A DNA stretch of 64,000 nt from Deltaproteobacteria bacterium (GCA_029262295.1 JAJCZR010000004.1:14313-78312); one strand, 5' to 3'. Positions 1,893 to 36,811 are shown, counted from the stretch's first letter. The notes: generated by a model from the letters alone, not told the origin. A program made the numbers and translations.

Positions 1893-3293
1893 TCATGAAC
1901 TGGGCTCTGTCATACTCCACGGATCAAGAGCCTTTGAAAGTTCATCTTCCGGAAGAACTTTTTTCTCAAGTGCAATTTCTCTTACAGTCTTTCCTGTTTT
2001 ATGGGCCTCTTTCGCAATTGCTGCTGCTTCATCATAACCTATAATCGGGGCAAGGCTTGTGCACATCGCAAGACTCTTTTCGATCATTTCCCCGCAGCGT
2101 TGTTTATCAGCTTTTATGCCATTAATACACTTATCAACAAAAACAACTGACACTTTTGATAAAAGCCTGATAGATTCAAGAATATTATTTGCCATCATTG
2201 GCATCATTACATTTAGCTCAAAGTTACCGGCTTGCCCGCCAATTGTAATTGCAGCATCATTACCAATTACTTGGGCAGAAACCTGGGTAACAGATTCACC
2301 TATTACCGGGTTTACCTTTCCTGGCATAATTGAAGATCCTGGCTGAATTGCTGGAAGGATTATTTCACCTATGCCGCATCTGGGGCCACTTCCAAGCCAA
2401 CGAATATCATTTGCAATTTTCATAAGGCTTACCGCGATAGTTTTTAGCACTCCACTTGTTTCCACAATTGCATCTTTTGAAGCCTGGGCTTCAAAATGGT
2501 TTTCCGCTTCTTTAAATTTTACTTTTGTAAGCTTGCTTATCTTTTTTGCAACATTCATTCCAAATTTTCTGTGTGTGTTTATTCCTGTTCCAACTGCGGT
2601 GCCACCAATTGCAAGTTCTGAGAGACTTTCCTTTGCATTCTCAAGCCTTTTGATTCCATGCAAGACCATACTCGCATAACCACTAAATTCCTGACCCAGC
2701 CGGATTGGAGTTGCATCCATCAGGTGTGTTCTTCCAATTTTAACAATGTTATCGAATAGCCTGGCTTTCTTTGAAAGTGCTTTTTCCAGATGTTTTAACG
2801 AAGGAATAAGCTCTTCATGAATAGATACAAGTGTGGAGACATGCATAGCTGTGGGAATTGTGTCATTACTTGATTGTCCATAATTCACATGGTCATTTGG
2901 ATGCACAAGCGACTTATCACCAATTTTGCCGCCAAGTATCTCATTTGCCCTATTTGCAACAACTTCATTTGTATTCATGTTTGTGGAAGTTCCAGAACCT
3001 GTCTGAAAGATATCAACGACAAAATGTTCATCCAGTTTTCCATCAATCACTTCTTTTGCAGCTTTAACTATTGCATTGCCTACCTTCTTTGTAATATTTC
3101 CAAGTTCCATATTTGTTTCAGCAGCAGAGAGTTTTATCATTCCCATCGCCTTAATAAATTCTCTTGGAAGTGTCTCACCGCTGATTGGGAAGTTTTCCAC
3201 TGCCCTTGCAGTCTGAGCTCCGTAATATGCACTTGATGGAACTTCCATTTTCCCCATTGAATCGGATTCTGTTCTAAAACCTTTCTTGGCCAT
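1893..3293 (-). CDS. fumC: class II fumarate hydratase
   Basis: 466 aa with the SDSMG...VP..AYYGAQT N-terminus and GSSxMPGKVNP signature. QTGSGTSTNMNTNEV matches fumarase (GSGT) rather than aspartase (GGAGT). Confidence 0.9.
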   Translation of the reverse strand: MAKKGFRTESDSMGKMEVPSSAYYGAQTARAVENFPISGETLPREFIKAMGMIKLSAAETNMELGNITKKVGNAIVKAAKEVIDGKLDEHFVVDIFQTGSGTSTNMNTNEVVANRANEILGGKIGDKSLVHPNDHVNYGQSSNDTIPTAMHVSTLVSIHEELIPSLKHLEKALSKKARLFDNIVKIGRTHLMDATPIRLGQEFSGYASMVLHGIKRLENAKESLSELAIGGTAVGTGINTHRKFGMNVAKKISKLTKVKFKEAENHFEAQASKDAIVETSGVLKTIAVSLMKIANDIRWLGSGPRCGIGEIILPAIQPGSSIMPGKVNPVIGESVTQVSAQVIGNDAAITIGGQAGNFELNVMMPMMANNILESIRLLSKVSVVFVDKCINGIKADKQRCGEMIEKSLAMCTSLAPIIGYDEAAAIAKEAHKTGKTVREIALEKKVLPEDELSKALDPWSMTEPSS

Positions 3294-10551: not shown

Positions 10552-11715
10552 TTAACCCAATTTTTCTACAACATTAAGACCTTCAATAATCTTTTCCACC
10601 CTTTTTTCCCAGGTGTAATCAACTATCTGCCTTCGTGCATTTTTAGCTATAAACATAGATACATTTTTGTCTTTAATAATAGCTCTTATAGCCTTTTCCA
10701 GTTCTCTGGCACTATCTGGTTTAATAATTACTGCGGTCATCCCATCACGCAATATCTCCATCACTGGCGGGATTGATGTTGCAATTATTGGCCGCTCAGC
10801 TGCCATATATTCAAAAAGTTTAATGGGAGAAGTAAATTTCGCCGCATCCTTACCGCCTTTAATAGTCACTTTTTTGGAGTAAGGCATAACCAGGATATCT
10901 GATGCGAGCAGATATTGAGAAACTTTTTTTTGCTCCACATAGCCCGTAAATTTTATATTGTTCATACCTATTTGCCTCACAAATTGCTTATATATACTGT
11001 TGTCATCTTCTGTGCCGCCAACCACTAAAAACTCAATATCCCGCATATTATTTGCAACATCAATTAAATACTCAATTCCCCTTCCCTCATATGTATTCCC
11101 ACTATAAGTAACAATTATAGAGTTACGTGGAAGGATCAGCTTCTCTCGAAGTTCATTTTTATCAAGGCTTGTATCAAATTTATCCACTTCCACACCATTA
11201 TGTGCAACAACTGATTTCTCTGGTTCAATTCTACTACGTGCATATATCTTTTTTAGTCCGTTCGAGTTAAATGACATTCCAAGAAAATGTTTTGAGCCGG
11301 AGAAATCTCTTATCATATTTGCTGCCCTTTTGCTTATAGGCGGATGGTGTGCATCATAAATTGTGGGGATTCCAAAATAAATTGTGGAGATGTAGGCAAA
11401 CATAAGGTTTCTTGTAAGAACAAAATCATATTTTTTTCTATTTGACCGGGCATAGAAAGCACTTGCAATTCCATGCACAATCTGCCTTGCAAATTTATAT
11501 GTGAAACGTATTGTCTTTACATCAAAACTTGGCGTAACGTCATAGTAGGTAAACAAGCTTTCTTTTGGAAAATTACCAGGTAATACTAATTCAACTTGAA
11601 TGCCAAGGTTTGACATTGCCTGGCACATCTTCATCATGTGAATAGAACTGGCACCTTTTCCAAAAAGTGGAGGGCTACCAACATAAAGAACTTTTAAACC
11701 TTTATAGTTTTGCAT
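10552..11715 (-). CDS. glycosyltransferase family 4 (GT1 fold)
   Basis: 387 aa. The C-terminal half has the EX7E-like region and nucleotide-sugar binding motifs of GT4 enzymes. Confidence 0.8.
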   Translation of the reverse strand: MQNYKGLKVLYVGSPPLFGKGASSIHMMKMCQAMSNLGIQVELVLPGNFPKESLFTYYDVTPSFDVKTIRFTYKFARQIVHGIASAFYARSNRKKYDFVLTRNLMFAYISTIYFGIPTIYDAHHPPISKRAANMIRDFSGSKHFLGMSFNSNGLKKIYARSRIEPEKSVVAHNGVEVDKFDTSLDKNELREKLILPRNSIIVTYSGNTYEGRGIEYLIDVANNMRDIEFLVVGGTEDDNSIYKQFVRQIGMNNIKFTGYVEQKKVSQYLLASDILVMPYSKKVTIKGGKDAAKFTSPIKLFEYMAAERPIIATSIPPVMEILRDGMTAVIIKPDSARELEKAIRAIIKDKNVSMFIAKNARRQIVDYTWEKRVEKIIEGLNVVEKLG

Positions 11716-11780
11716 TGTTTTTTGGCTTAATTATATTGAATCTAATTGAAGGAATTAATTCTATACAAAAAACGACCAAC

Positions 11781-13040
11781 ATGAAAGTAAAATCGATAAG
11801 AGGTTTCAGGGATATACTGCCGGAAGAGATAAAAAGGTGGCACTTTATTGAAGAAAAGTGCCGAAAAATCTTTGAAAAATATGGTTTTAGCGAGATCAGA
11901 ATACCCATATTGGAGCAAACAGACATTTATACAAGCGGCCTTGGCGACACATCTGATATTGTGTCAAAAGAGATGTACACTTTCGAAGACCGAGATGGGA
12001 CATCCATAACTCTCAGACCTGAAGGCACAGCCGGAGTGGTAAGGTCATTTATTGAAAACTCCATGGGCAAAAAATCCCCAGTTAATAAGCTTTATTATTC
12101 CGGGATGATGTTTCGCCATGAGCGTCCACAAAAAGGACGTTACAGAGGATTTAACCAAATGGGAGCTGAGTGCTTCGGCTCTGAAAGTGCGTACTGTGAT
12201 GCCGATATTATCTCTATGCTCTGGAGTATATTTTCTGAACTTGAGCTTAATAATCATGTAAAACTCGAAATTAACTCAATTGGTACAAGCGAAGACAGGG
12301 CTAAATTCAGAGAGGAGCTGGTTAATTATTTTGAACCACAAAAAGATAACCTTTGTGATGACTGTAAGAGAAAACTTGATACCAATCCATTAAGAATTCT
12401 TGACTGCAAGGTCGAAACTTGTTTAACAACTATCGGTAAAGCTCCGTCAATACTTGATTTTTTATCAATTGATAGCAAAAATCACTTTGAAAAAATCAAG
12501 TTTTTATTAGAAAAGATTGATATACCTTTTACTGTGAATCCAAAGATTGTGCGTGGCCTTGACTACTATACAGACACCGTTTTTGAACTGACAACTGACA
12601 AGCTTGGATCTCAAAATGCAGTGGGTGCAGGTGGAAGATACGATGTGTTGGTTAAACAACTTGGTGGGCCTGATACTCCGGCAGTGGGTTTTGCCATCGG
12701 ACTTGAAAGATTAATTCTTTTACATGAACAGGTTTTTCCTGAAGAATACAGACAAAATGTGGATATTTATGTCGCCTCCCTCGGAGAAAAAGCCCTTAAC
12801 GAAGGAATTTATATTTCAAACATTTTAAGGAAACAAGGCCTCAATGTTGAGTATGGATTTGATAAAAAGAGCTTTAAAAGCCAGCTTAAAAGGGCAAATA
12901 AGATAAATGCCAAATATACTATTATTATTGGTGAAGATGAACTTGACAGAAATGTATTTAAGCTAAGGAATATGAAGCTCAGTGAAGAGAAAGAGTATTC
13001 ACTTGATGAGATTGAGAATTTTATAAATCTTATAAGCTAA
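11781..13040 (+). CDS. hisS: histidine--tRNA ligase
   Basis: Class II aaRS motifs (MYTFEDRDG..LRPEGTAG; FRHERPQKGRYR). ATG at 11781 (MKVKSIRGFRDILP) matches the HisRS N-terminus. The ORF-track start at 11667 is a GTG overlapping the divergent GT gene and was not used. Confidence 0.9.
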   Translation: MKVKSIRGFRDILPEEIKRWHFIEEKCRKIFEKYGFSEIRIPILEQTDIYTSGLGDTSDIVSKEMYTFEDRDGTSITLRPEGTAGVVRSFIENSMGKKSPVNKLYYSGMMFRHERPQKGRYRGFNQMGAECFGSESAYCDADIISMLWSIFSELELNNHVKLEINSIGTSEDRAKFREELVNYFEPQKDNLCDDCKRKLDTNPLRILDCKVETCLTTIGKAPSILDFLSIDSKNHFEKIKFLLEKIDIPFTVNPKIVRGLDYYTDTVFELTTDKLGSQNAVGAGGRYDVLVKQLGGPDTPAVGFAIGLERLILLHEQVFPEEYRQNVDIYVASLGEKALNEGIYISNILRKQGLNVEYGFDKKSFKSQLKRANKINAKYTIIIGEDELDRNVFKLRNMKLSEEKEYSLDEIENFINLIS

Positions 13041-13859: not shown

Positions 13860-14420
13860 TTAGTTATCTTTTTTCTTCTTCTTTTTCTTGTCAATATCGA
13901 ATTTTATTTCATTTACAGCCAAATACTCTTCAATAAAAATATCTGCAAGTTCAGATGAATTTTTGTAAATACAGCTTGGGATATTTTTTTTGGGGCACGA
14001 CATAAGTTTTCCGGTCGACCAGGTTGCAGCTGTTGAGAGTTTACTTTGGCCCAGGATATTGGCCATTAATGTCACAGGCCTGTAAAATTCAAAGTTAAGA
14101 TAAAATGTATAACTTTCCCTGTCAGCATTTTCTGAGGAGATTATTCTGATCTTAATAAAACCTCCGCCTGCACGGTTCATCCACTGAGATCTTTTATAGA
14201 CATCAACTTCAGAGACATCAATTTTTTCATGAAGTGTTTCCTGGAGTTGCTCGAGATATATTTGCCTGTCGCTTAAGTGGTTAGAGTGATTTTCAACAAA
14301 AACCGCCACCCCTGATATACCTCTAAGCGAATGGTTTCCATAACCAAAAGAGTCAGACAAAGTGAAATATGACAAAAAGAAAATAGAAACAAAGAAAGAA
14401 ATTAAAAAGTTTTTCAACAT
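13860..14420 (-). CDS. secreted hypothetical protein with C-terminal poly-lysine tail
   Basis: 186 aa with signal peptide. Ends ...DKKKKKKKDN. Lies 94 bp downstream of the giant TPR gene. Confidence 0.45.
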   Translation of the reverse strand: MLKNFLISFFVSIFFLSYFTLSDSFGYGNHSLRGISGVAVFVENHSNHLSDRQIYLEQLQETLHEKIDVSEVDVYKRSQWMNRAGGGFIKIRIISSENADRESYTFYLNFEFYRPVTLMANILGQSKLSTAATWSTGKLMSCPKKNIPSCIYKNSSELADIFIEEYLAVNEIKFDIDKKKKKKKDN

Positions 14421-14440: not shown

Positions 14441-14514
14441 ATGAAAACGCTCAACAATAAGTATTGTTTTTACTAGCTACTAACCACTAGCCCCTAACTA
14501 CTAAAATCCAACCC
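14441..14514 (+). repeat. G-depleted CTAA-rich tract immediately 3' of the giant TPR gene
   Basis: tactagctactaaccactagcccctaactactaaaatccaacccctaatcc. Same composition as the tracts at 6961-7012 and 26571-26720. Confidence 0.4.
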
Positions 14515-17500
14515 CTAATCCACATTATTCTGAAGATAAACGATATTCTCTTCAATCATATTATAGATATCGGGAAACTGGTTTTGGCTAAATACTTTTT
14601 GAGCTTCCCTGTAAGACTTAATTGAGTTTGAGTAGTTTTGTTTTTTATCCTCACTTTCAGCAAGAGTTGAGTATGCACCTGCAAGATTATTCCTCGTAGT
14701 GGCATACTGTATTGGAAACTTCTCAAAGCTGTAAACAATCAATGCAGATTCGTAAGAGGAGATTGCATTTTTACAATTATTACTTTTAGACTCAACCTCG
14801 CTTAATGTCCTGTAAGCAACACCAAGATTATTTTGAGTGGCAGCAAACTGAATTGGCATATTTTCAATAGTCCTTACTTTCAGAGCACGTTTATAGCTTG
14901 ATATGGCTTTTTTACAGTTATCAATTTTGTTTTCTTCTTCAGCAAGGGTCCTGTAGGCAGTGCCAAGATTGTTCTGGGTATTACTGTATTGAATAGGAAA
15001 ATCCTTGAGCGAGTAAGCCTTAAGCGACTTCTCATAGAAACTTATAGCTTTAGTTGAGTTCACAGCTTTATTGTTAACCTCTGCAAGGTTTCTGTGTACA
15101 ATACCAAGATTATTATTAGCGGCAGCAAACTCCATAGGATTGTCATTAATATCATATACTTTCAGCACTTTAGAATACGAATCGATTGCCTTTTCACAGT
15201 TTTCTACTTTGTCTTCAAGATCAGACAATGCACTGTAAATTGACCCTATGTTGTTATATATGCTTGCATAAACAAAAGGTGTTTTGCTAAAACTATAATA
15301 TTCAAGCGCACTTTCATAGGCTTTTATTCCCTTCTTGCAAAACTCGGGATCATTATTTGTCTCAATTAGCTTTAAGTAATTATTTCCAAGATTTCTGTTA
15401 ATAAGACCATAATCGTTGGTATTATCATCAATAGAAAAGTAGTTAAGTGAATCTTCATAACAGACAACTGATTTCTCAAGATAGCCGCTGTCATTATTTC
15501 TCTCGCCATAAGTACCGTATGCAATTCCAAGATATTTATTTACTAATGCATATTCACCTGGGGACTTTTCCTTATCAAAACTTTCCAAAGCATGCTCGTA
15601 GGATTTAATTGAGTTCATAAATGCTTTATTATCAAACTCTATTTCAGAGATAACTCCATAAGCAATTCCAAGGTTCATATTAATTATTGCATAATCCTGG
15701 GGATTACTTTGTTTTGTAATGATTTTAAGGGCTTTATCATAAAAAGGGATGGAATCTTTATAGTACTTGAGTTGCCCTTCCCTTTCTGCAAGTGAAGTAT
15801 TTACAATCCCAATATTTTTATTTATTGCAGCATGATCTTCGGGAAAATCTTTTGAATTAAAATAGTTAAGTGCATTCTCTGCAATTGTTAACATATTTTT
15901 ATATTCCCTTAAATCAATTTCTCTTACATTTTCAGGATAAATTCCAATAAGATCCCGGCTTATTTCAGCATAAAAAGAAGGTTGTTCTTTTTCATCAATT
16001 TCATTAATTGCGTTTTTATAATTTTTAATAGCTTCAGAGTAACCTAAAAGATTGACACCATTTTCTGCATCTGCCACATAAGACTCAGAAAGTTTTCTGG
16101 ATACTTCTATAAATTCCGAAGGAGAATCTTTTTTATTTATATTTTCAAGCCTGGCTTTATACTCCTTAGTCATTGAGGGAGCTTTTTGCTCATCTTCACT
16201 TGCAACTACTTCGGGGGCTTCCTGTTCGGGGGCAAACTCTTCTTTTTGTTCTTCTTCTACTTTTGCTTCCAGGCTTTCTTCAGTTATTTCATCTTCACTA
16301 AGTGTATTATCAGCTAAAATCTCAGATGGTTCCCCTTCAATTTGTCTATCTTCACTCATTTTTAATGAAGAACTTTCTTCTATCATTTCATCAACAAGTT
16401 CAAGCACATCATCACTCTCAGAATCTTCTTTTGCTTCCAGTAGTTCAGAAGGGTTAGTGCTGTGAGTTGCAGCCTCTACTTCAATTTCTTTTTCCTCATC
16501 AACTTTTTCTTCCTCAGCAGATGCCAGTAAAACTTCTGTTTCAACTGGTTCTTCATCTACAGGCTCAACCGTATCAAAAGAAGCAAGTATTTCTTTTACT
16601 TCATCAATTTTCGGTTTGATTTCAGTAATCTTCTCACCGTTTTTTTCATTTTCATAAAAATCCATTGCACTATTATATAAGGCTAGTGCATAGTCGAGCT
16701 TTACCCTTTCCTCATTAATTGCAAAAAGGCTATGGTTAATAAAAGCAAAATTGAGGTTTATTTCAGCCGTATCCTCTTTAGTACCAAGTTTTTCAACTGA
16801 TTGTAAGACTTCATTCAATATTTTTTCAGCACTATAAATATCTTCTGCATTACTATCCGAATCGTAAAGTTCGACAAGGCTAAAACCTTTTAATTTTTGA
16901 AGCTGAAAATTTCTTTCTGGATAATCTTGCTCCGGATATTTTGCGAGAAGGACATCAACTGTAGATATCTTTTCCCTTACATTCTCTTTTGACTTTAAGA
17001 ATTCAAAATTAAGATTAAATATTTCATTCATTCTTTCATTTATATGAGAATAAATAGATGAATTTTCTTTCTCAGTGAAATAACTTTCGGCAATTCTATA
17101 GTGATTCTCACTATCAATTAATAAGGATTCGTCTTTTTTATCTTCAAATAAACTAAAACATATGTCTGCAAGATTAAGATTGATTTCAAAATACTTCTCT
17201 TGTGATTTTTCTTCACTGAAACCCTGCAAAACTTCTTTATATTTTTCAATTGCAAGAGTGAGTTCACCATTTTCTCTATATGATTTAGCCTCAAGTAAAC
17301 CAGCTTCATCTATAATTTCTTTTACTTCACTTAACCTTGGATCAGCAGCATCAATATTTGAATTATTTACAAATTTGTCAAAATATTCAAGGGCTTTCGA
17401 AGCATATTCAGTGTTATCTGATTCTACCGAAATTCGGTTATAAAGCCGTGCAATAAAGTATTGTAACTCTCCTGCATTTTTTGGATCTTCATTTTCAGCA

Positions 17501-20500
17501 AAACCCGCACTTTGTTTTAATGAAGACATAAACTCATCAAAATCATTTTTATCAAGAGCTTCAGTTGGTTCATCCAAATAACTTTTAGCAAGAATAAGAT
17601 TGTATTTTGCAATCTCACCACTATTCCCAGCATTTGAAGCTATTTCTTTAAGCTTGGTTATATAACCTTCTCTTTCTTTAAAACTAAAGGGGCCGTTTTC
17701 AAGAAGTGATTCATAGATAGATTTTATATTTAGTTCAGCATTCTCAAACTGAGTAGGAGAATCTTCTTTTTTATAAACAAGTAAAGATGCATTTGAATAA
17801 TTAATAGTATTATCTGCATCAGCCTTGTTTGCTGATTCCTGAAATTTTTCTTTGAAATGGTTTGCGAGTTTAAGATTTATCTCAGCATATTTCGCAGGTT
17901 CTTTCTCAAGTGTAAAATGTGTTAGTAAGTCAATATATTTATCTTCAGAAAGCTTTCCGCTCTTGGTAAAATCTGCTTCTGCACTTTCATGCATTAGCCT
18001 TGCTATTTTATCATTTACTTCATTTAAAAGCTTCTGATCACCTGATGGGATATAACTTAGTGAATTTTTGTAAAACTCGAGTGCTTTGCCAGGTTTTGAG
18101 TTATCGTTATTTATTGAGTAAAGCTTTTCAAAAAGCTCACCGAGCTTGATTGCCACATCTGCTTTTTTCTCATTTTCACTGATGCTGCTGAAAGAAATAC
18201 GATAACATTCAACAGCTTTTGTATACGTATCGTAGTCATTATTAGCATCAGCGAGTGTTGAAAAAAGCCCCGCATTTTTTAATTTTTGTTCATAAAACAA
18301 TTGATCTCTTTTCTCTTCATCTATGAGTTGGGTTGCTTTTTCATAAAAGAAAAGTGCAGTTTCAAGTTCCTCTTTGTTTTCATAAATATTTCCATAAAGA
18401 CGATAATTATCGAACAATTTAGAGCTAATAACTGCAACTTCTTCATCCTCTTTGTTGAACATGTAGAGTTCCCTTGCTTTTTCATAATGCTCAATAGCAT
18501 CTGACAGGGGTTCCTTTTCTTCTGACAACCCATATATTTCATTACTTATATTTCCCATCATAGTCTGGATTGCAGCGAGCTCAGTGAAATCATTTACCTC
18601 GTCAAGATAACTCATATAATTTTTAAAATTGATTATTGAAGTTTTATAAAGATCAATATCATTTTTCGTTTCACCAAGGGAAAAATAAGTCTTCGCAATA
18701 TCTTTATAAGCAGAAGGAAGTGCTTCGTATCTTTCATTTTCTTTATAAAGGGAAATAAGGCTGCCTAGATACTCAACTTTCTTTTCATTATCATAATGTC
18801 CATCTTCCTCAACTAACTTTTCATAAACTTTCTCAAGATAAGAGTTGATATCACCCACTTCATCAGAAGAGCTAGAATCGCTATTTAAAAAGATATTCTT
18901 TGCTTCATTAAAACAGGTAATAGAATTATGCAAATCTTCTATTTGGTTCTCAGAATCACTGTTTTCGAAATAGCAGCGGCCCATTAGTTTTTGGATAGAA
19001 GCATATTTATCAGGATAATTTTCAGCATCATAATATTGAAGGCTTTGCTGAGATAACAAGATTGCCTGTTTTGAATTACCACTATTAAATTCATTCTCAC
19101 TATTAATAAACAAAAGCCCCGCTTTTTCTGCACTATAATCTTTGGCTTCATCTAAAAGATTATTATCGTTGCAAAAATGTATTAAATCATCAACAGTTGA
19201 TATTGAATTATTGAGGTAATTAGTGTCTGCTTCATTTTCGAACAGGAGCTTTGAGCTTTGGTAAATATTTTTTTGTATTGAAAAATATTTGTCTGAAAAA
19301 TTTTCTTTACTAAAGTATTCCAAAGACATGCAATAATTCTCAATAGACCTTGTTAGACTATCTTTGTTATATTCTTTTTGGGCTAGTTTTTGGTATGAAT
19401 CCCCAAGGGTAATAAAAGAAGTAGCTGAATACTCTGTGTTTGGTTCTGAATCTATAAAATCAATATCTTTTTCAATAAGATCAATCACTTTACCAAAATC
19501 TTCATTTTCATAAAAACTATCAACAAGCGTTTGCTTATTAGCAAGATAGATCTTAGAAATATCACTATACTGCTGCGATCCTGATTCAATAGAATTAAGC
19601 GCTTGTTTAAAATAATGATTGGAATCAAAAAGCTTTGATTCTTCACCAGTTATTGAATAAAGTGTTGCATAAGTTTCAGCAATATCACTATTAAGAGCTA
19701 CATATCTATTTTGATCTTTTTCCTTATTAAAAAAGCTTAAACCCTCTTCGATTTTGGATATTTTATTATTAAGCAGGTCAGCATCTTTCGAGGTTACTCC
19801 CAGTTTTCCATCAATATCAGCACTGGATAAAAGGGTGCTATAATATTTTTCAGGCTCACCTTGCCTATCAATTGATTTAAGTGCATTTTTAAAAGCAGTG
19901 TTAGCTTTGTTTAAAAATTCGTTATTTTCATTTACTTCATAGGATTTAAGGTAAAGTTCCCCAAGATTAATCTCGATACCTGAGGTATTCATTCCCGTAT
20001 CTTTAGACTCGAATATACCTAGAAGTTTATTGTAATATTCAACACCATCCTGAGTATTATCAAAACTCTTATTTTCTGCCAACAATAGCTCATGTGCAGC
20101 TTTAAGTTTGCTCCTTATCTCACTATTCTCATTAGGATAATCTTTTTCGTTAAAAAACCCTGAAATGTTTTCATAATTTTCAATTGAGTCAAACATTAAG
20201 CCCAAATCATTTTTAGTGCTACCCAACTCAAACTTGGCTGTGGCTAATTGAAGATTTATATGGGCATTTTTATTTGGAAACTCTTCACTATCAAAAATAT
20301 TAAGTGAACTTTCTAAATGAGCTGCCGACTTATTTAAATGGTTGTCATCTTTTTCTTGCTGATAAAGAGATAAGCTCATAGAACCAATCTCATAATCAAC
20401 AACACCATTTTCATAAATATGTTTTTCACCTTTAAACCCAAGCTGACTTTCCTCTAAACAAGAAAGGCATTCCTTGTATGGTACCATTTCATTGTTTATC

Positions 20501-23500
20501 AATGCATTTTCTTTATTGAGCATTGCAATATGATAATTTGTTGCTGCGTATATGAGGGGATAATTTTCAAGGTTAAATTCATCGAGTGATTCCTTATAAG
20601 TATTTATAAGGTTTTCATAAGACTCAGGTGTATTTACCTTATTATGGAAAAGCCTGTAGGCATTGGCAAGATTGATACTTGCCCTTTGTCTTACCACCTC
20701 CCCCACCTGTCCAGTATCATCCTGCGACATCTGGGCAACTGACCTCAAAATATCAATTGCCTTTTCACACTCGTCATTTTCTGCTGAGCAAGTCGAGTTA
20801 TAGATATGGGCAACACCGAGGTTGTTTTTAAGTGCTGATTCAAGATAATCAGTCCCAAAGCTGTTTAGAATTTCCTTTGAAGATTCAATATCCACGATCG
20901 CAGCATTAATATAAGAATCTTTTTCCCTGTGTGAGAAAAGAAACAGATTACAGCATGCACTATTATTTTTTATTGCAGCATAAACGCCTGGATTCCTTTC
21001 GGAATTTATTTCCTTCAAGGATAGTTCAAAATTATCAAATATAGTGGATATATCTTCATTTGAATGTGAACCATCAAATTCCGACAAAAAAAGCTTGGCA
21101 TTTGAATAGTTGTTTCTACAAATAGATAGTTCAGTGTTAGCGCCAATACTTTCAAAATATTCAATTGCACTTGAATAATCAGTGAGCGCCGGATCTAGTA
21201 AACCTTTATCATTATTGATCTCATAAAGCGTACATTTGGAATTAGAAAGATTGTTTTTTACAGTTAATAGTAGCTCAAGGTTATCTTCAGGTATCAACTC
21301 AATCGATTCATTAAAAATTTCAGACGCTTTGCTTAGATTTGCCTCAGCCTCCATAACCTCAGATAACACGCAGTAACTTGCACCAAGGTTGTTTAATACA
21401 AGGGCATGATCGATTTCATGTGACTGTGATTCAATATAGTCTGCTGAACTACTTAGTTGCCTTACAGACTCAAGGGCATTTTCTTTTTTATTTTCAATAA
21501 ATGCGAGTTTTCTATGTAAATTACCGAGATTGTTGGATATTTTTGCATATTGTATTGGATAAACATCAGATTTAAAATATCTTGAAGCATTTTTATATGC
21601 CTCAATAGCCTTATAGATATTGCTAACATTAAGACCATCTTTAAGGTCATTTGAAAACAGGCCTCCAAGTTCAATTTGAATAAGGCTGTATTCTTCAGGA
21701 AAAAACTCATGTTTAAAATAGCCCAGTGATTCAAGATTTGCTCTTATTGAAGATTGAAGCACTTCTGGATCTTTTTCATAGACATAAAGCTCTTTATAAG
21801 ATCTTGCTATTTTTCTCATGATAAAGCCATATTTACTTGGGTTACTTTCTCCCTCGAAGACTCTTTTAGATTCTTCAAATGAAGAAATGGCTTTCTTTAT
21901 CAAATCAGGGCTTCCATCAAAAAAGGCTACATCAAGATAGGAATCACCAAGGTTATTCTGGATCATTGCATAGTTGTCTGGATACTCATCAAAGGAGTAA
22001 ACCTTTAGCGATTCATTAAACGAGTTAATGGCATTTTCAAGATAGGTTTTGTTATCTGTTTCCTCTGCAAGAGAAGTGTATGCAACCCCGATATTATTTT
22101 GTGTCATTGCATAATCAATTGGGGATCTTTCATAAGTTATAAATTCTGAAGAAACTTTATAACACTCAATTGCCTTATTGCAGTTCGCTTCCTTGTTTTC
22201 AAACTCAGAGAGGGCACTATAGGCATTTCCAAGATTATTTACCGTGGAGTAATATGTTTCAGGAAAATCATCTTTATTGTATATCTCAAGGGCCTGTGTA
22301 TATGAATCAATTGCTTTTGTGCAATAATCGCTTTCAAACTCAAGCTGCGAGAGCATCTCGAAAGTGGCCCCTGCATTTCTTTTAATTTCAGCAAAATCCT
22401 CAGGTTTATGATCACTACTAAAAAACTGCAAACTTTGTTCGTATGAATCTATAGCCCTATGGCAACTTTCAACATTTCTTTCAAATTCACCTTCAAGCCT
22501 GTAAGAAGTGCCAAGGTTTCTGTTTAATGTTCCATAATATTCAGGCTGTTCTTTGGGGTCAACAAGTCTGAGTGCATCTTCATAACATTTAATCGCTTCT
22601 TTTATTCTATCTTTATGTTCATCCTCATGAGAAATTTTTAGATGAGAGTCGCCCATCTTTGTTTTAATATCAAGATACTGCTCAGTTTGCGTATCGCTAT
22701 CAATAAAATTAAGTGCTTCTTCAAGGTGTTCAGTTGCTTTTATACAGTTTTCAATTTTGTCTTCAGATTTTGATAATAGAAGATAAGCCTCACTCAGCCC
22801 TAAAAGGGCCTCAGGATATCTTTCATCATCTTTTTTATCCTCAAGCATTAAAATAACCCTTTCGTAACTTTCTACTGAGGATTTAATTATTGTATTATCT
22901 TCACTAATATCACCAGCTTTTCCCAAAGCATGGGAAAGTTTAGTCTCAATATCCAAATCATCGTATTCTATCGCAACTTCTTCAAAAGAAGCCTTTGAAG
23001 CCGAAAAGCTTTCAATTGCTTTATTGTAGATATCAAGTTCTGCGCTCTCTTTAGCTTTATTCAGATAAGAAATTCCAAGATTATAGTTGATATTTGCATT
23101 TTTGATTAGGCTTTCTTTATTGGCCGGAAGTGAAATTATCTCTTCAAAAAGTCCTATCGCTTTTTGATTTTCACCAAGCTTAATACATGAAACTGCAAGG
23201 TTGTTTTTAATATCCAGGATTAATGCCGACTCGTCCTCAGAGGAGAGAAGTTCTAAAGCTTTGATATAAAAGAAGCTTGCCTTTGTAGCAAGCGAGTTAT
23301 CTTTGTCATCTGAGAGCAAACATGCATCTGCAAGATTCTTTAAATTTTCAATACTAACTTCAATATCGCTATCAGCATTAACAATATTTTCTGTAAAGGT
23401 TTTTAAAACTTCACTAAACCGGGCCTTGTCATTTTCATCTGCATCACAAATTCTTTTGGTCAAAATTGAAATGGCAAGATAATTAATATTTAAAAGAAGG

Positions 23501-24228
23501 GCTTTATTTTCATCATCAAGATTTGAGTATTCAGCACTTGCTGCTTCAAAATCTTTTATACTCAGATTTTCATGATCTTCAGCTTTATTTAGAAACTCAG
23601 AAATTGCACTTGATTCTGATAATGATTTTATTTCGTTTCGTATTTGCTCAAGCAGTTTATTATCCAGGGAGTTGTTTTTAATTCCTGAATTTACAAGCTC
23701 AATAAACTGCTCTTTACTTTCCTCAAAATTGGAAAAATCAAGTTCTACAAGATTAAGGTTGTTATCAAGAAAATTTTCTGAAATGGATTTAATATTAGAG
23801 AAAAAAGCTTCATCATCTTTTATAAAATCTGCTTCATGCCCCGAGAGTGTTTCAGAAAGGTTAGTCAGTTTTTCAAAAAAAGCTTTGTTAGAGGAGCTTA
23901 GTAAAGCAATTGATGGAGTATTTGATTTTTGTAGTTGGCCATAAACAAGCACTGTCTTTGGGCTAAAACCATCCAGGATAAAAATATTAAGTGCCGAGCT
24001 TTTATTTATTTTAGAAATGTTATCAATATCTACATCTTTTTCGTTGATTGTATTTATTCTTATGGATTTTGAACTGAGATATGACTTAACCTTATTAATA
24101 GCTTCAGGGCTATTTAAAGTATTAAAAACAGAAGGATAGATAAGGTTACAGGGGACCGGTGTACCAAGAAATAAACTTGTTGATTGAGATTTTGTGAGAT
24201 CAATTTTATAAATTCTGTTTTTAGACAT
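14515..24228 (-). CDS. giant TPR-repeat protein (3237 aa) with an internal acidic low-complexity linker
   Basis: Single uninterrupted ORF. A TPR-like motif of 40-42 aa (..NNLGxAY..L.....KAI..Y..AL..Y....P..YA.) recurs along the length. An E/D-rich segment lies roughly at DNA 16080-16560. The C-terminal ~500 aa form a near-consensus TPR array, visible at DNA level as ~126-nt periodicity in 14515-15900. Confidence 0.85.
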   Translation of the reverse strand: MSKNRIYKIDLTKSQSTSLFLGTPVPCNLIYPSVFNTLNSPEAINKVKSYLSSKSIRINTINEKDVDIDNISKINKSSALNIFILDGFSPKTVLVYGQLQKSNTPSIALLSSSNKAFFEKLTNLSETLSGHEADFIKDDEAFFSNIKSISENFLDNNLNLVELDFSNFEESKEQFIELVNSGIKNNSLDNKLLEQIRNEIKSLSESSAISEFLNKAEDHENLSIKDFEAASAEYSNLDDENKALLLNINYLAISILTKRICDADENDKARFSEVLKTFTENIVNADSDIEVSIENLKNLADACLLSDDKDNSLATKASFFYIKALELLSSEDESALILDIKNNLAVSCIKLGENQKAIGLFEEIISLPANKESLIKNANINYNLGISYLNKAKESAELDIYNKAIESFSASKASFEEVAIEYDDLDIETKLSHALGKAGDISEDNTIIKSSVESYERVILMLEDKKDDERYPEALLGLSEAYLLLSKSEDKIENCIKATEHLEEALNFIDSDTQTEQYLDIKTKMGDSHLKISHEDEHKDRIKEAIKCYEDALRLVDPKEQPEYYGTLNRNLGTSYRLEGEFERNVESCHRAIDSYEQSLQFFSSDHKPEDFAEIKRNAGATFEMLSQLEFESDYCTKAIDSYTQALEIYNKDDFPETYYSTVNNLGNAYSALSEFENKEANCNKAIECYKVSSEFITYERSPIDYAMTQNNIGVAYTSLAEETDNKTYLENAINSFNESLKVYSFDEYPDNYAMIQNNLGDSYLDVAFFDGSPDLIKKAISSFEESKRVFEGESNPSKYGFIMRKIARSYKELYVYEKDPEVLQSSIRANLESLGYFKHEFFPEEYSLIQIELGGLFSNDLKDGLNVSNIYKAIEAYKNASRYFKSDVYPIQYAKISNNLGNLHRKLAFIENKKENALESVRQLSSSADYIESQSHEIDHALVLNNLGASYCVLSEVMEAEANLSKASEIFNESIELIPEDNLELLLTVKNNLSNSKCTLYEINNDKGLLDPALTDYSSAIEYFESIGANTELSICRNNYSNAKLFLSEFDGSHSNEDISTIFDNFELSLKEINSERNPGVYAAIKNNSACCNLFLFSHREKDSYINAAIVDIESSKEILNSFGTDYLESALKNNLGVAHIYNSTCSAENDECEKAIDILRSVAQMSQDDTGQVGEVVRQRASINLANAYRLFHNKVNTPESYENLINTYKESLDEFNLENYPLIYAATNYHIAMLNKENALINNEMVPYKECLSCLEESQLGFKGEKHIYENGVVDYEIGSMSLSLYQQEKDDNHLNKSAAHLESSLNIFDSEEFPNKNAHINLQLATAKFELGSTKNDLGLMFDSIENYENISGFFNEKDYPNENSEIRSKLKAAHELLLAENKSFDNTQDGVEYYNKLLGIFESKDTGMNTSGIEINLGELYLKSYEVNENNEFLNKANTAFKNALKSIDRQGEPEKYYSTLLSSADIDGKLGVTSKDADLLNNKISKIEEGLSFFNKEKDQNRYVALNSDIAETYATLYSITGEESKLFDSNHYFKQALNSIESGSQQYSDISKIYLANKQTLVDSFYENEDFGKVIDLIEKDIDFIDSEPNTEYSATSFITLGDSYQKLAQKEYNKDSLTRSIENYCMSLEYFSKENFSDKYFSIQKNIYQSSKLLFENEADTNYLNNSISTVDDLIHFCNDNNLLDEAKDYSAEKAGLLFINSENEFNSGNSKQAILLSQQSLQYYDAENYPDKYASIQKLMGRCYFENSDSENQIEDLHNSITCFNEAKNIFLNSDSSSSDEVGDINSYLEKVYEKLVEEDGHYDNEKKVEYLGSLISLYKENERYEALPSAYKDIAKTYFSLGETKNDIDLYKTSIINFKNYMSYLDEVNDFTELAAIQTMMGNISNEIYGLSEEKEPLSDAIEHYEKARELYMFNKEDEEVAVISSKLFDNYRLYGNIYENKEELETALFFYEKATQLIDEEKRDQLFYEQKLKNAGLFSTLADANNDYDTYTKAVECYRISFSSISENEKKADVAIKLGELFEKLYSINNDNSKPGKALEFYKNSLSYIPSGDQKLLNEVNDKIARLMHESAEADFTKSGKLSEDKYIDLLTHFTLEKEPAKYAEINLKLANHFKEKFQESANKADADNTINYSNASLLVYKKEDSPTQFENAELNIKSIYESLLENGPFSFKEREGYITKLKEIASNAGNSGEIAKYNLILAKSYLDEPTEALDKNDFDEFMSSLKQSAGFAENEDPKNAGELQYFIARLYNRISVESDNTEYASKALEYFDKFVNNSNIDAADPRLSEVKEIIDEAGLLEAKSYRENGELTLAIEKYKEVLQGFSEEKSQEKYFEINLNLADICFSLFEDKKDESLLIDSENHYRIAESYFTEKENSSIYSHINERMNEIFNLNFEFLKSKENVREKISTVDVLLAKYPEQDYPERNFQLQKLKGFSLVELYDSDSNAEDIYSAEKILNEVLQSVEKLGTKEDTAEINLNFAFINHSLFAINEERVKLDYALALYNSAMDFYENEKNGEKITEIKPKIDEVKEILASFDTVEPVDEEPVETEVLLASAEEEKVDEEKEIEVEAATHSTNPSELLEAKEDSESDDVLELVDEMIEESSSLKMSEDRQIEGEPSEILADNTLSEDEITEESLEAKVEEEQKEEFAPEQEAPEVVASEDEQKAPSMTKEYKARLENINKKDSPSEFIEVSRKLSESYVADAENGVNLLGYSEAIKNYKNAINEIDEKEQPSFYAEISRDLIGIYPENVREIDLREYKNMLTIAENALNYFNSKDFPEDHAAINKNIGIVNTSLAEREGQLKYYKDSIPFYDKALKIITKQSNPQDYAIINMNLGIAYGVISEIEFDNKAFMNSIKSYEHALESFDKEKSPGEYALVNKYLGIAYGTYGERNNDSGYLEKSVVCYEDSLNYFSIDDNTNDYGLINRNLGNNYLKLIETNNDPEFCKKGIKAYESALEYYSFSKTPFVYASIYNNIGSIYSALSDLEDKVENCEKAIDSYSKVLKVYDINDNPMEFAAANNNLGIVHRNLAEVNNKAVNSTKAISFYEKSLKAYSLKDFPIQYSNTQNNLGTAYRTLAEEENKIDNCKKAISSYKRALKVRTIENMPIQFAATQNNLGVAYRTLSEVESKSNNCKNAISSYESALIVYSFEKFPIQYATTRNNLAGAYSTLAESEDKKQNYSNSIKSYREAQKVFSQNQFPDIYNMIEENIVYLQNNVD

Positions 24229-24553
24229 CTTAATTCCCCAAAATCACTTTAGCAAAAAAACCTTTTAATTTCAAACTGTTAGAATCGAAATTTAAAGCCA
24301 TTGCTTAATTTTAAATCAACAATTGATCTTTGAAAAAATGGGTTGACCTTGCAGGGATTAAGATGATTAATCAGAACTAATGATGATTTATAAAAAGTTC
24401 TTAAAATAACCTTTCTCCTTTAAAGGTGGTTCAGCAGCCATATTAAAATCCAACTTAGGCCTGACACTTTGCGCCCTATTCTTTCAAATAGTTTGCCTTT
24501 ATCTATTAAAGGTAAACTTTATGCAACAAATCAATTATATAGCATTTTAAAAA

Positions 24554-24904
24554 TTATTCATCTGGTTTTGTAATTGCCTTTAATTTACCGAGTTCCTTTC
24601 TTGCATTTTCATGAACTAAACGGAGCTCTTCTTCAAGATCAGATACCTCCTGTTCAACCTTTGCCACTTCTATGCACCTTGCTTTTATGCTCTCAGAATC
24701 AAATTCGTCTTTAGTCTTAAACTGTTTAAAAACAAACTCACCTACCTCTTTTATCTCTTTACCTTTCTTACGCTTATGGGCTTGTAATTTATTTTTAAGC
24801 TTCACAGTATCATAAGCCTCTTTCGACCTTATATTTACGACTCTTAACCCTTTATTAAGCCCCGATTTTATCTTTGAAAGAATATCATCATTGTATGGAT
24901 CCAT
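24554..24904 (-). CDS. small charged coiled-coil protein, function unknown
   Basis: 116 aa, K/E-rich and predicted helical. Same strand as the giant TPR gene and 325 bp upstream of it. Confidence 0.45.
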   Translation of the reverse strand: MDPYNDDILSKIKSGLNKGLRVVNIRSKEAYDTVKLKNKLQAHKRKKGKEIKEVGEFVFKQFKTKDEFDSESIKARCIEVAKVEQEVSDLEEELRLVHENARKELGKLKAITKPDE

Positions 24905-31980: not shown

Positions 31981-32319
31981 TTATTCGTATAAACAGGCAT
32001 CAATAACTGCCAACACTTCATCTAAGAATTCCGAGGAAGCTCTTTCAATAAATTTAGCTTTGCGATACTTGAAATCAAGAGATTTAACTTGATCTACCAT
32101 AACAAAGCCTGAGATATTTTTTGAATCAAAGATTTTTATATGAAACGGAAATTTTCTTTCAGTATTGGTTATTGGGCAAACAATGGCAAGCCCTGTTTTT
32201 TTGTTGAATAAAGTATTGCTGACAACAATTGCAGGTCGGCGACCTTTCTGCTCATGACCTGATTGTGGATCAAAGGTTAATGCAATAAAGTCGCCTTTTT
32301 GTGGAACAAATTGAGCCAT
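31981..32319 (-). CDS. mazF: type II toxin, MazF/PemK endoribonuclease family
   Basis: GDFIALTFDPQSGHEQKGRRPAIVVS...AIVCPITN matches the PemK/MazF fold signature. Start codon abuts the antitoxin stop. Confidence 0.85.
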   Translation of the reverse strand: MAQFVPQKGDFIALTFDPQSGHEQKGRRPAIVVSNTLFNKKTGLAIVCPITNTERKFPFHIKIFDSKNISGFVMVDQVKSLDFKYRKAKFIERASSEFLDEVLAVIDACLYE

Positions 32320-36758: not shown

Positions 36759-36811
36759 TTATACGTTCTCCCAATTAGATTTAGTGTTTACATTAACCAC
36801 TACCAACAAGA

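Follow-up and report, generated by a model that had tools for sequence, protein, structure and literature searches.

A giant TPR-repeat protein probably made in response to c-di-GMP in an uncultured deltaproteobacterial lineage

We conclude that an uncultured deltaproteobacterial lineage probably makes a giant scaffold protein in response to c-di-GMP. In the window (the whole stretch of 64,000 nt analysed here, from Deltaproteobacteria bacterium, GCA_029262295.1 JAJCZR010000004.1:14313-78312), a 3,237-aa protein composed largely of tetratricopeptide (TPR)-type repeats is encoded downstream of a conserved c-di-GMP-I riboswitch aptamer. On balance, and with moderate confidence, we read this protein as a soluble, non-enzymatic cytoplasmic mega-scaffold whose synthesis would be tuned by c-di-GMP through the riboswitch in its leader. 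The original prediction held that the function could not be deduced from sequence. This is broadly right yet overstated: function is partly predictable because the conserved riboswitch in the leader links expression to c-di-GMP.

Giant gene and repeat architecture

The giant gene was predicted to be a single ORF of about 9.7 kb, and this ORF is real, intact and conserved. Its parts are as follows.

14515..24228, minus strand: giant gene, 3,237 aa, 369 kDa, pI 4.55; uninterrupted ORF with orthologs
23854..24228, minus strand: N-terminal alpha/beta domain (flavodoxin-like, putatively TIR/NDT-like), aa 1-125, pI 9.6; from an AF2 model and a weak sequence link
23344..23853, minus strand: helical connector, aa 126-295, poorly conserved; predicted all-helical at low confidence
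16609..23343, minus strand: main repeat array, aa 296-2540, TPR-type with a 47-aa period; 41 units by repeat HMM, many degenerate
21148..22548, minus strand: repeat block A, conserved, aa 561-1027; nine of its ten units keep the exact 47-aa register
16129..16608, minus strand: acidic, indel-rich linker, aa 2541-2700; D+E 29-35%, pI 4.05, gaps in orthologs
14518..16128, minus strand: C-terminal repeat block B with terminal capping helix, aa 2701-3237; best-conserved part

A search of 5.8 billion clustered proteins at E<=1e-5 returned just two full-length homologs besides the window protein, P0008 (3,237 aa, 61% identity) and P0009 (3,207 aa, 43%), both aligning nearly without gaps. Contig scans yielded two further relatives of 3,771 aa and 3,374 aa. 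Three full-length relatives are held by related uncultured bacteria, one of them labelled “Deltaproteobacteria bacterium”. With so few full-length homologs, the description of the protein as a giant, rare, tripartite TPR scaffold is broadly right. A word-index search with the N-terminal 330 aa gave zero matches, the query itself included; this is a limitation of the tool, because the full-length query recovered itself and the two orthologs.

The tripartite layout that had been proposed also stands, with a non-TPR N-terminus, a repeat array, an acidic linker and a conserved C-terminal block, but its repeat length and its “near-identical” C-terminal repeats do not. The non-TPR region, put at ~280 aa, extends to ~295 aa, the first repeat-like unit lying at aa 296. 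The repeats themselves had been described as 40–42 aa long; their period is 47 aa (141 nt). BLOSUM autocorrelation gave a sole peak at a shift of 47, the spacings of DNA repeats were multiples of 141, and the 47-aa register is perfect at aa 561-983 and 2795-3217. Pfam matches above cut-off were TPR_12 (125.6 bits; cut-off 30.1) and TPR_10 (58.8 bits; cut-off 27.5), together with TPR_1, TPR_2 and TPR_7. The repeats are of an extended TPR_12-like subclass and not canonical 34-residue TPRs. About 52 units of 47 aa were found with a self-built repeat HMM, and the family matches suggest that about sixty such repeats of the TPR type stack into a solenoid.

Both the motif (P-x-x-Y-A-x-T-Q-N-N-L-G-x-A-Y) and the 47-aa period are shared with TPR_12/TPR_10-type proteins of cyanobacteria and other bacteria, and the shorter TPR proteins of our metagenome scan all peak at a shift of 47, as the giant protein does. 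Those proteins were matched over ~250–550 aa, whereas about 60 repeats lie here in one 3,237-aa chain. Unlike them, the giant protein also has an orphan alpha/beta N-terminus and an acidic hinge, is conserved block by block and is encoded behind a riboswitch leader.

Block B contains nine exact-register units (aa 2795-3217) scoring 49–64 bits each, as well as the best Pfam TPR_12 and TPR_10 stretches. Identity between C-terminal units averages 35% at the protein level (maximum 62%) and 49% at the DNA level (maximum 59%), so they are far from near-identical and cannot stem from a recent duplication. Recent internal duplication, for which the original prediction had suggested a DNA-level check, was rejected: Tandem Repeats Finder reported no array, and repeat units were 40–59% identical in DNA. 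The C-terminal repeat units have a motif in common but are old.

Conservation of the giant protein is strongly block-wise. Identity to P0009 is 58–70% in block A, 22–42% over most of the remaining array and 60–90% from aa 2801 onward, the last being comparable with NuoH (88%; NuoG, 80%). Most of the array diverges fast (43% and 26% identity vs 88% and 77% for NuoH). The acidic linker had been correctly placed; it spans aa ~2541-2700. It is the sole indel-rich part of the ortholog alignment, with 40 of the 50 aligned positions at aa 2551-2600 gapped in an ortholog. An equivalent acidic stretch is present in the giant protein of locus L002 and absent from L003, which encodes a distant giant homolog.

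Pfam and NCBIfam scans of the whole giant protein revealed no domain other than TPR above threshold, and no NTPase or P-loop domain (NB-ARC, NACHT); TPR-S and SesA matched weakly (E 0.01 and 0.004, respectively). No signal peptide or membrane segment was found (maximum Kyte-Doolittle mean over 19 residues 1.31; N-terminus not hydrophobic), nor any sorting motif, RTX or other adhesin domain.

Riboswitch aptamer, leader and flanking genes

The 325-nt gap upstream of the giant gene contains an aptamer that the original prediction had missed. The leader and the flanking genes comprise the following features.

24554..24904, minus strand: upstream 116-aa gene, basic helical protein; syntenic, 5' of the riboswitch and its putative promoter
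24534..24544, minus strand: candidate sigma-70 promoter -10 region TGCTATATAAT, with TATAAT at 24539-24534; directly 5' of the aptamer
24422..24507, minus strand: c-di-GMP-I (GEMM-I) riboswitch aptamer, Rfam RF01051
24229..24421, minus strand: expression platform or remaining 5' leader, 193 nt from aptamer to ATG
24343..24366, minus strand: putative anti-Shine-Dalgarno/anti-start segment UCAUCUUAAUCCCUGCAAGGUCAA, window only; predicted to pair with the SD/AUG region 24247-24225
13860..14420, minus strand: downstream 186-aa gene with a hydrophobic signal-like N-terminal segment; 94 nt past the giant's stop

The window aptamer matched RF01051 at 64.7 bits (gathering score 35; E 2e-10) over model positions 1-87, which is full coverage. 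An aptamer was present in all six clade loci with DNA (window, L001, L002, L015, L016 and L017; RF01051 or RF03167, 60–75 bits), in every case oriented like the giant gene and placed in the interval that separates it from the 116-aa gene. The distance is 47–88 nt to the 116-aa gene's stop and 160–260 nt to the giant ATG. No riboswitch was found in L003. Across the six sequences, 95.4% of helix cells were paired (n=108) compared with 18–52% (<=51.5%) in slid controls, and two aptamer pairs showed compensatory changes (C-G/U-A and A-U/G-C swaps). Alignment columns G19, A46 and C90 and the GAAA tetraloop at 31-34 were invariant (6/6); we take these three columns to be Vc2 G20, A47 and C92, a mapping based on the Vc2 structure. 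Specificity of the cGAMP type (RF03167 “GGC”) was considered and rejected: three loci scored marginally better with RF03167, yet all six carry the canonical G, A and C, and the “GGC” variant position is A in 6/6 and not the RF03167 consensus G. The aptamer is thus present and conserved, and it is predicted to bind c-di-GMP.

Aptamer architecture, GAAA tetraloop and ligand contacts are shared with Vibrio cholerae Vc2 (tfoY), C. difficile Cdi-1 and Bacillus thuringiensis Bc1, and the long leader of Bc1 resembles that of the window (PMC11218506). Unlike in known c-di-GMP-I riboswitches, the downstream gene encodes a giant TPR protein and the expression platform is not recognisable; the sister subclade represented by L002 differs further by an interposed sigma-54-type promoter. 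Full-text literature searches found no paper linking a c-di-GMP-I riboswitch to a TPR protein.

Conserved boxes 5' of the aptamer point to a promoter. A 26-nt block right after the stop of the 116-aa gene is 100% identical between the window and L001, the rest of the intergenic region having diverged, and at the equivalent place the L002 clade carries an invariant TTGACA-16-TAACAT. The window -10 candidate was not listed by a consensus promoter scan, and promoter function is suggested by this conservation. Since these promoter-like boxes come after the 116-aa gene and ahead of the aptamer, a transcript would start with the aptamer and not end with it. Downstream of the aptamer, L002, L015, L016 and L017 share an invariant sigma-54-type promoter (TGGCA-N6-TTGCA) 25–35 nt before the ATG, through which much of the giant-gene transcription in this subclade could bypass the riboswitch. 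L003 has the same motif without a riboswitch. A sigma-54 promoter (TGGCA-N6-TTGCA; GG-N10-GC) was also sought in the window leader and was absent, even with one mismatch; neither this motif nor any other promoter was detected between aptamer and ATG in the window or L001.

No canonical intrinsic terminator was found in the leader, and the whole-leader fold was no more stable than shuffles (z = -0.97). The anti-Shine-Dalgarno duplex of the window reached a dG of -21.2 kcal/mol vs -13.2 +/- 2.1 in shuffles (0/200 as good); none of the five remaining loci conserves this helix. A conserved expression platform was sought by terminator scan, MFE folds, alifold of L002-clade leaders and an SD-sequestration test, none of which gave a solution common across loci. 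A conserved hairpin follows the aptamer on its 3' side in the L002 clade.

Both flanking ORFs lie on the same strand as the giant gene, as had been predicted. The 186-aa gene starts 94 nt past the giant's stop in the window and 29 nt in L002, with no terminator-like site found in between, and is possibly co-transcribed with the giant gene. Its product shares 32% of its residues with the L002 ortholog, conserved Cys and Trp among them, and matched nothing in family, PADLOC or PDB searches. It had been described as a secreted, poly-lysine-tailed protein; the window protein does have a signal-like N-terminus, but the tail is absent from the L002 ortholog. The 116-aa gene occurs in five further loci (the P0008 contig, L001, L002, L015 and L016), L017 containing just the end of an upstream ORF. 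A multiple alignment puts the identity of its product at 72% with the L001 ortholog and at 61% with that of L002; the product had no significant match in family or PDB searches and none among PADLOC models. L003 lacks both small genes. A synteny check confirmed that both are syntenic within the clade. As support for the proposed partnership with the giant protein this evidence is unspecific, because housekeeping neighbours (MFS, TatA, NuoG and NuoH) share the same synteny. In addition, the putative promoter and the riboswitch set the 116-aa gene apart from the giant gene.

N-terminal head domain and alternative readings

Structure prediction and family searches of the N-terminus, proposed with the original prediction as a check, returned no enzymatic family above threshold but a weak link to TIR/NDT-like alpha/beta domains. 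For aa 1-135, AF2 gave a moderate model (8-sequence alignment; pLDDT 66, pTM 0.62) with four strand-helix units; a model of the N-terminal 310 aa, built from 3 aligned sequences, was poor at pLDDT 56. Foldseek with the head model retrieved solely generic flavodoxin-like matches from PDB (E >= 9e-3), a TIR domain ranking 17. The window head itself had zero Pfam or NCBIfam matches even at E <= 10, none among PADLOC models and no significant one among PDB sequences; the connector (aa 126-295; 22–34% identity to P0009) likewise had no Pfam or NCBIfam family match. A head-domain profile search of 1.84 billion proteins found P0010 alone (E 7.5e-5), a stand-alone protein named “nucleoside 2-deoxyribosyltransferase” by JGI. 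Below threshold, P0010 matches CAP12-PCTIR_TIR (22.7 bits; cut-off 24.7) and Nuc_deoxyrib_tr (19.6; 28.8), and it shares with the giant's head the motif PC...LDG...Y/F-G. The predicted four-unit, flavodoxin-like fold may be common to the head, to TIR-like domains including CAP12-Pycsar TIR (PF10137) and to NDT-like domains (PF05014). Unlike these families, the window head has no direct profile match, its fold matches are generic and a Glu is replaced by V. A weak link of the head to TIR/nucleoside-deoxyribosyltransferase-like domains is thus suggested.

Residues P26, C27, L85, D86 and G87 are invariant in the head. In the motif ...N(V/L)L(F/Y)E(F/Y)G, the Glu, presumably the catalytic one of these families, is kept in L003, P0010 and P0012 and replaced in all four clade sequences: V in the window, I in P0008, I in P0009 and S in L002. 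This replacement suggests that catalysis was lost.

Such a head could also belong to a conflict or anti-phage sensor-effector, in which the TPR array would sense an invader (TPR-S/STAND-type) and the TIR/NDT-like head would degrade NAD+ or nucleotides or signal by oligomerisation. The weak link through P0010 to CAP12/Pycsar-type TIR and nucleoside deoxyribosyltransferase families, the Glu kept in the outgroup giant L003 and in stand-alone P0010 and P0012, a 47-aa TPR subclass common to many shorter TPR proteins of the metagenome scan and the weak TPR-S and SesA matches are all consistent with this. The same holds for the array, most of which evolves much faster than the genes around it, a pattern that would also suit an arms-race sensor. 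We nevertheless consider this function unlikely. The clade has lost the Glu in 4/4 sequences, the giant protein has no NB-ARC, NACHT or other P-loop domain, and PADLOC models match neither the head nor the flanking proteins, the three that were searched. Moreover, the locus sits in core-genome synteny (HisS, MFS, TatA, NuoG and NuoH) in genomes down to 77% NuoH identity, unlike a mobile defence island, and control by c-di-GMP, with sigma-54 in relatives, would be atypical for defence genes. An exported surface or extracellular adhesin is highly improbable. In its favour are the protein's great size, low pI (4.55) and repeats, the c-di-GMP riboswitch ahead of its gene and the signal-like N-terminus of the downstream product; giant, acidic repeat proteins frequently leave the cell by type I secretion, and many genes controlled by c-di-GMP riboswitches encode adhesins, among them those of Clostridioides difficile (PMC6200980). 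However, the giant protein has no export signal, membrane segment, sorting motif, RTX or adhesin domain, and the sole HlyD-like gene of the window is 7 kb away and forms a pair with an AcrB-type RND pump. TPR solenoids of this 47-aa subclass are typically intracellular.

The role of the riboswitch can likewise be read in another way: it might be a stand-alone RNA (a c-di-GMP sponge or sRNA) or a 3' stability element of the 116-aa gene mRNA, with the giant gene transcribed from its own promoter. We regard this as rather unlikely. It would account for the sigma-54-type promoter between aptamer and ATG in four loci and for the same motif without a riboswitch in L003, for an aptamer only 47–88 nt from the 116-aa gene stop, for the hairpin conserved after the aptamer in the L002 clade and for the lack of a recognisable expression platform. 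It has precedents in merRNA (PMC3627812) and in an effect of Vc2 on upstream RNA (bioRxiv 10.1101/617340). Against cis-regulation, too, are the aptamer's position nearer to the 116-aa gene stop than to the giant ATG and the lack of a terminator or conserved anti-SD element. On the other hand, conserved promoter-like boxes separate the 116-aa gene from the aptamer, scans of the window and L001 revealed no promoter between aptamer and ATG, and leaders of 160–260 nt are within the known range of c-di-GMP-I riboswitches with long expression platforms (PMC11218506). Bdellovibrio merRNA, massively expressed, is also a deltaproteobacterial c-di-GMP-I aptamer of uncertain classical cis-role, as here, but it has no conserved downstream ORF (PMC3627812), whereas the clade aptamers are followed by the giant ORF in 6/6 loci.

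Biological meaning

We infer cis-regulation by the aptamer together with a scaffold role for the protein. In this favoured reading, transcription would start at the conserved promoter directly upstream of the canonical c-di-GMP-I aptamer; since the transcript would begin before the aptamer, synthesis of the giant protein would follow the c-di-GMP level. Its synthesis, and probably also that of the small exported downstream protein, would thus be coupled to cellular c-di-GMP. The protein would begin with a small, basic, flavodoxin-like or TIR/NDT-like head (aa 1-125) that has lost the Glu of the outgroup. The two conserved repeat blocks (aa ~550–1000 and ~2800–3237) may be where partners bind, with the fast-evolving repeats in between serving as a length-preserving spacer, and the acidic linker may be a flexible hinge that separates off the highly conserved C-terminal block of about ten repeats.

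Two deltaproteobacterial proteins offer a comparison, Bdellovibrio Bd2492 and Myxococcus SgmX. Both are several-fold smaller than the giant protein, and we know of no riboswitch or TIR-like head in either. Bd2492 (with MglA, RomR and the c-di-GMP receptor CdgA) and SgmX are cytoplasmic TPR scaffolds linked to c-di-GMP or to the control of lifestyle and motility, and they are functional analogies only. In deltaproteobacteria, TPR proteins serve as polar hubs with ties to c-di-GMP receptors and to motility GTPases (PMC3983030, PMC7519303, PMC7668184). A more far-reaching picture, which we consider quite doubtful, would make the protein a TPR “ruler” or polar hub on the scale of the cytoskeleton, measuring tens of nanometres if ordinary TPR superhelix geometry applies. 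It would be a new class of c-di-GMP output with abundance set by the riboswitch. Its degenerate TIR/NDT-like head would serve as a nucleotide sensor or oligomerisation module, and it would position envelope or motility machinery in possibly predatory or gliding deltaproteobacteria, with the co-transcribed small exported protein as periplasmic counterpart.

The immediate impact is modest, since only few loci are known and the lineage remains uncultured. Still, giant TPR proteins are usually annotation dead ends, and here a conserved riboswitch gives a concrete regulatory handle. The family lends itself to a comparison of three regulatory states: L003 has sigma-54 only, the L002 clade combines it with the riboswitch, and the window and L001 have the riboswitch alone. 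If confirmed, a structural protein would be headed by a TIR/NDT-like domain whose conserved Glu has been lost, and c-di-GMP riboswitch regulons, which so far comprise mostly flagella, pili, adhesins and regulators, would gain a new kind of target in the giant gene. If cis-regulation is true, the riboswitch places a 369-kDa scaffold in a lifestyle-switch regulon and tells when the cell makes it.

Architecture, repeats and relatives of the giant protein

The gene at 14515–24228 (minus strand) is a single unbroken ORF, as the original prediction claimed, and encodes a protein of 3,237 aa with a predicted mass of 369 kDa and pI of 4.55. The proposed tripartite layout is also real: a non-TPR N-terminus extends to the first repeat-like unit at aa 296, an acidic stretch occupies aa ~2541–2700 (D+E 29–35%, pI 4.05), and the last ~500 aa form a well-formed repeat block. 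A Pfam scan returned TPR_12 (125.6 bits) and TPR_10 (58.8 bits), both far over their cut-offs, and no family other than TPR; an NCBIfam scan of the protein added nothing to this result.

Repeats recur every 47 aa (141 nt), and the 40–42 aa first proposed is incorrect. A shift of 47 gave the sole peak in BLOSUM autocorrelation, repeat spacings at the DNA level are multiples of 141, and units run in exact register over aa 561–983 and 2795–3217. The C-terminal units had been described as near-identical; their pairwise identity averages 35% for protein (maximum 62%) and 49% for DNA (maximum 59%). The original prediction had listed recent internal duplication at the DNA level among its checks; these identities speak of none, and Tandem Repeats Finder detected no array in the gene. 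An iterated repeat HMM placed ~52 units over aa 296–2529 and 2702–3217, or roughly sixty repeats once degenerate gaps are counted. Since every shorter TPR protein from our metagenome scan has the same 47-aa period, the repeat type itself is ordinary.

When the full-length protein was searched against 5.8 billion clustered proteins, it matched only itself and two full-length orthologs:

P0008: 3,237 aa, 61% identity to the giant
P0009: 3,207 aa, 43% identity to the giant

The three sequences align nearly without gaps except in the acidic linker. Conservation with P0009 is block-wise: aa ~550–1000 are 58–70% identical and aa ~2800–3237 are 60–90% identical, and most other residues fall to 22–42%. 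For this same genome pair, identity is 88% for NuoH, 80% for NuoG and 43% for the giant overall. Contig scans added two giants to the set of relatives. Locus L002, from a MAG labelled 'Deltaproteobacteria bacterium OFTM105', encodes a 3,771-aa homolog with a matching layout, acidic linker included. L003, a metagenome contig of 45% GC, encodes a distant 3,374-aa giant (best segment 24% identity) with very regular 47-aa repeats and no acidic linker. In two metagenome contigs of the window's clade the giant ortholog is broken: two in-frame TAA codons in L016 (1516–1518 and 1567–1569) replace Ser and Glu of L002, and the L015 reading frame shifts after aa 223 (~2944–2953). These could be assembly errors or real decay in those populations.

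The N-terminal head domain

Residues 1–125 are basic (pI 9.6) and are predicted to form four strand–helix units, which in the structural model is a flavodoxin-like alpha/beta domain (pLDDT 66, pTM 0.62); aa 126–295 are predicted helical and are poorly conserved. In 1.84 billion representative proteins, the head profile had a sole outside relative, P0010 (E 7.5e-5), a JGI metagenome protein named 'nucleoside 2-deoxyribosyltransferase' whose sub-threshold Pfam matches are CAP12-PCTIR_TIR (22.7 bits, cut-off 24.7) and Nuc_deoxyrib_tr. P0010 and P0012, the latter from an archaeal Methanothrix sp. MAG, are stand-alone 280-aa homologs, so the head domain also occurs apart from giant TPR proteins, and in more than one domain of life. 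The L003 giant carries it too.

Residues P26, C27, L85, D86 and G87 are invariant in the head alignment. L003, P0010 and P0012 keep the Glu of an N-x-L-x-E-x-G motif, where the sequences of the window's clade have V, I, I and S. A Foldseek search of the head against the PDB gave generic flavodoxin-like matches only (best E 9e-3; a TIR domain ranked 17th), and two of three tests for TIR/NDT-like membership were negative. Overall, we take the head to be a flavodoxin-like domain that is probably TIR/NDT-like and, in the window's clade, probably non-catalytic.

The riboswitch in the putative leader, and candidate promoters

The 325-nt gap 5' of the giant gene harbours a c-di-GMP-I riboswitch aptamer, the only Rfam match in the 64-kb window. 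Each of the five other clade loci with DNA has this aptamer in the corresponding position.

Leader features and aptamer scores (RF01051 gathering score, 35)
24422–24507, minus strand (that of the giant gene): c-di-GMP-I aptamer, RF01051, 64.7 bits, full model
24539–24534: TATAAT within TGCTATATAAT, directly 5' of the aptamer, in the block conserved between window and L001
L001 aptamer: 60.7 bits, best model RF03167
L002 aptamer: 68.1 bits, best model RF01051
L015 aptamer: 74.9 bits, best model RF01051
L016 aptamer: 65 bits, best model RF03167
L017 aptamer: 60 bits, best model RF03167
Sigma-54-type motif: L002 9024–9039; L015 2248–2263; L016 1050–1065; L017 488–503; L003 5969–5984

In the six-sequence alignment, P1 and P2 are 95.4% paired, against 18–52% with slid partners, and compensatory swaps occur at two pairs. 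All six sequences share the GAAA tetraloop and do not vary at the columns that we take to match Vc2 G20, A47 and C92. RF03167, the 'GGC' variant model, scores marginally above RF01051 in three loci. Because the A47 column holds A, not G, in all six aptamers, we read them all as canonical c-di-GMP sensors.

A 26-nt block that includes TGCTATATAAT, 100% conserved between the window and L001, lies directly 5' of the aptamer; in the L002 subclade, TTGACA-16-TAACAT is invariant at the equivalent position. Given these conserved putative promoter boxes, the aptamer appears to open a transcript that leads into the giant gene, rather than to end the mRNA of the 116-aa gene upstream. No expression platform conserved between loci was identified and no canonical terminator was found in the leader. 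In the L002 clade an A/U-rich hairpin is conserved 3' of the aptamer, but it has no U-tract and shows no covariation. The window leader has a strong predicted helix sequestering the SD and AUG (24366–24343 with 24247–24225, dG -21.2 kcal/mol; none of 200 shuffles was as good), which is absent from the other loci.

An invariant sigma-54-type TGGCA-N6-TTGCA lies 3' of the aptamer, 25–35 nt before the ATG, in L002, L015, L016 and L017. The riboswitch-less L003 giant has this motif ~60 nt before its ATG, and the window and L001 leaders lack it. Its position 3' of the riboswitch implies two promoters for the giant gene in the L002 clade. The distribution of both elements shows three putative regulatory states in the family: L003 has sigma-54 alone, the L002 clade combines riboswitch and sigma-54, and the window and L001 have the riboswitch alone. 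For the window's giant gene, a riboswitch-led transcript is the sole candidate route found. The variable L002-subclade leader also contains an invariant GAGGTTGGG block (L002 8895–8905 region; alignment A10 columns 117–125) that precedes the sigma-54 motif by ~130 nt; it may bind an enhancer-binding protein or belong to the expression platform. Elsewhere, in the metagenome contig L005 from the scan, a tandem glycine riboswitch (369–610) precedes an unrelated match to a short TPR protein by ~700 nt, probably by coincidence.

Neighbouring genes and interpretation

The original prediction suggested the flanking small genes as partners. The upstream gene, 5' of both promoter and riboswitch, encodes a basic, helical 116-aa protein that is 72% and 61% identical to its L001 and L002 orthologs in a multiple alignment (72% and 59% in pairwise global alignments). 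It recurs in five further clade loci (P0008 contig, L001, L002, L015 and L016; the L017 contig holds only the end of an ORF upstream and is not counted); L003 lacks it. The housekeeping neighbours MFS, TatA, NuoG and NuoH are syntenic to the same degree, so synteny alone is no proof of partnership. The downstream 186-aa protein is hydrophobic at its N-terminus and has conserved Cys and Trp residues; its identity to the L002 ortholog, in which the poly-lysine tail is not conserved, is 32%. Its gene may share the giant's transcript, since the two genes are separated by a spacer of 94 nt (29 nt in L002) in which no terminator-like site was found. Neither small protein matched a family, defence model or solved structure. 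The 94-nt spacer contains a 14-nt tandem repeat (ACTAGCCACTAACC, 2.3 copies; 14472–14503).

Other observations concern the rest of the window. GC falls to 26% over 1–2000 (~35% elsewhere), where a 342-aa ORF (419–1447, minus strand) has no Pfam match. A PemK/MazF-type toxin gene (31981–32319, minus strand; Pfam E 7e-26) sits amid housekeeping genes, and adjacent right-handed beta-helix (NosD-like) paralogs of 338 and 283 aa lie at 35742–37663 (minus strand). The HisRS ORF (11667–13040, plus strand), called from a GTG, overlaps a convergent glycosyltransferase ORF (10552–11715, minus strand) by 49 nt; its true start is probably further downstream, because the exact sequence from the called start is absent from the protein collection.

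On the best-supported reading, the giant is a mega-scaffold of the cytoplasm with no enzymatic role, and its synthesis depends on c-di-GMP. Binding would take place at the two conserved repeat blocks, and the rapidly diverging repeats that separate them would serve as a spacer; the near-gapless alignments show that its length is preserved. The acidic, indel-rich segment would be a flexible hinge. In deltaproteobacteria, some cytoplasmic TPR proteins serve as hubs linked to c-di-GMP receptors and to motility GTPases (Bd2492: PMC3983030; SgmX: PMC7519303, PMC7668184); the likeness is one of analogy, not homology.

A role as a TIR–TPR conflict sensor-effector would fit a TIR-like head, but this alternative is weakened by the lost Glu in the window's clade, by the lack of an NTPase or of any match in a PADLOC search with the head, and by a locus in core-genome synteny. 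A secreted adhesin is a further alternative, but no export signals are present: the giant has no signal-peptide or membrane-helix candidate (maximum 19-residue Kyte–Doolittle mean, 1.31). The coupling to c-di-GMP faces a serious alternative: with a sigma-54 promoter interposed in the sister subclade, the riboswitch may not regulate the giant gene in cis and may act as an sRNA or sponge, for which merRNA is a precedent (PMC3627812), or may target the mRNA of the gene upstream.

Taken singly, c-di-GMP-I riboswitches and this TPR subclass are well known; a full-text literature search found no paper tying the two together. What is novel is the combination: an array of ~3,200–3,800 aa in a single chain, an orphan domain at its head and a riboswitch leader, which a small uncultured lineage has conserved. 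The main value of the find lies in the experimental handle that the riboswitch offers on the function of an otherwise opaque giant.
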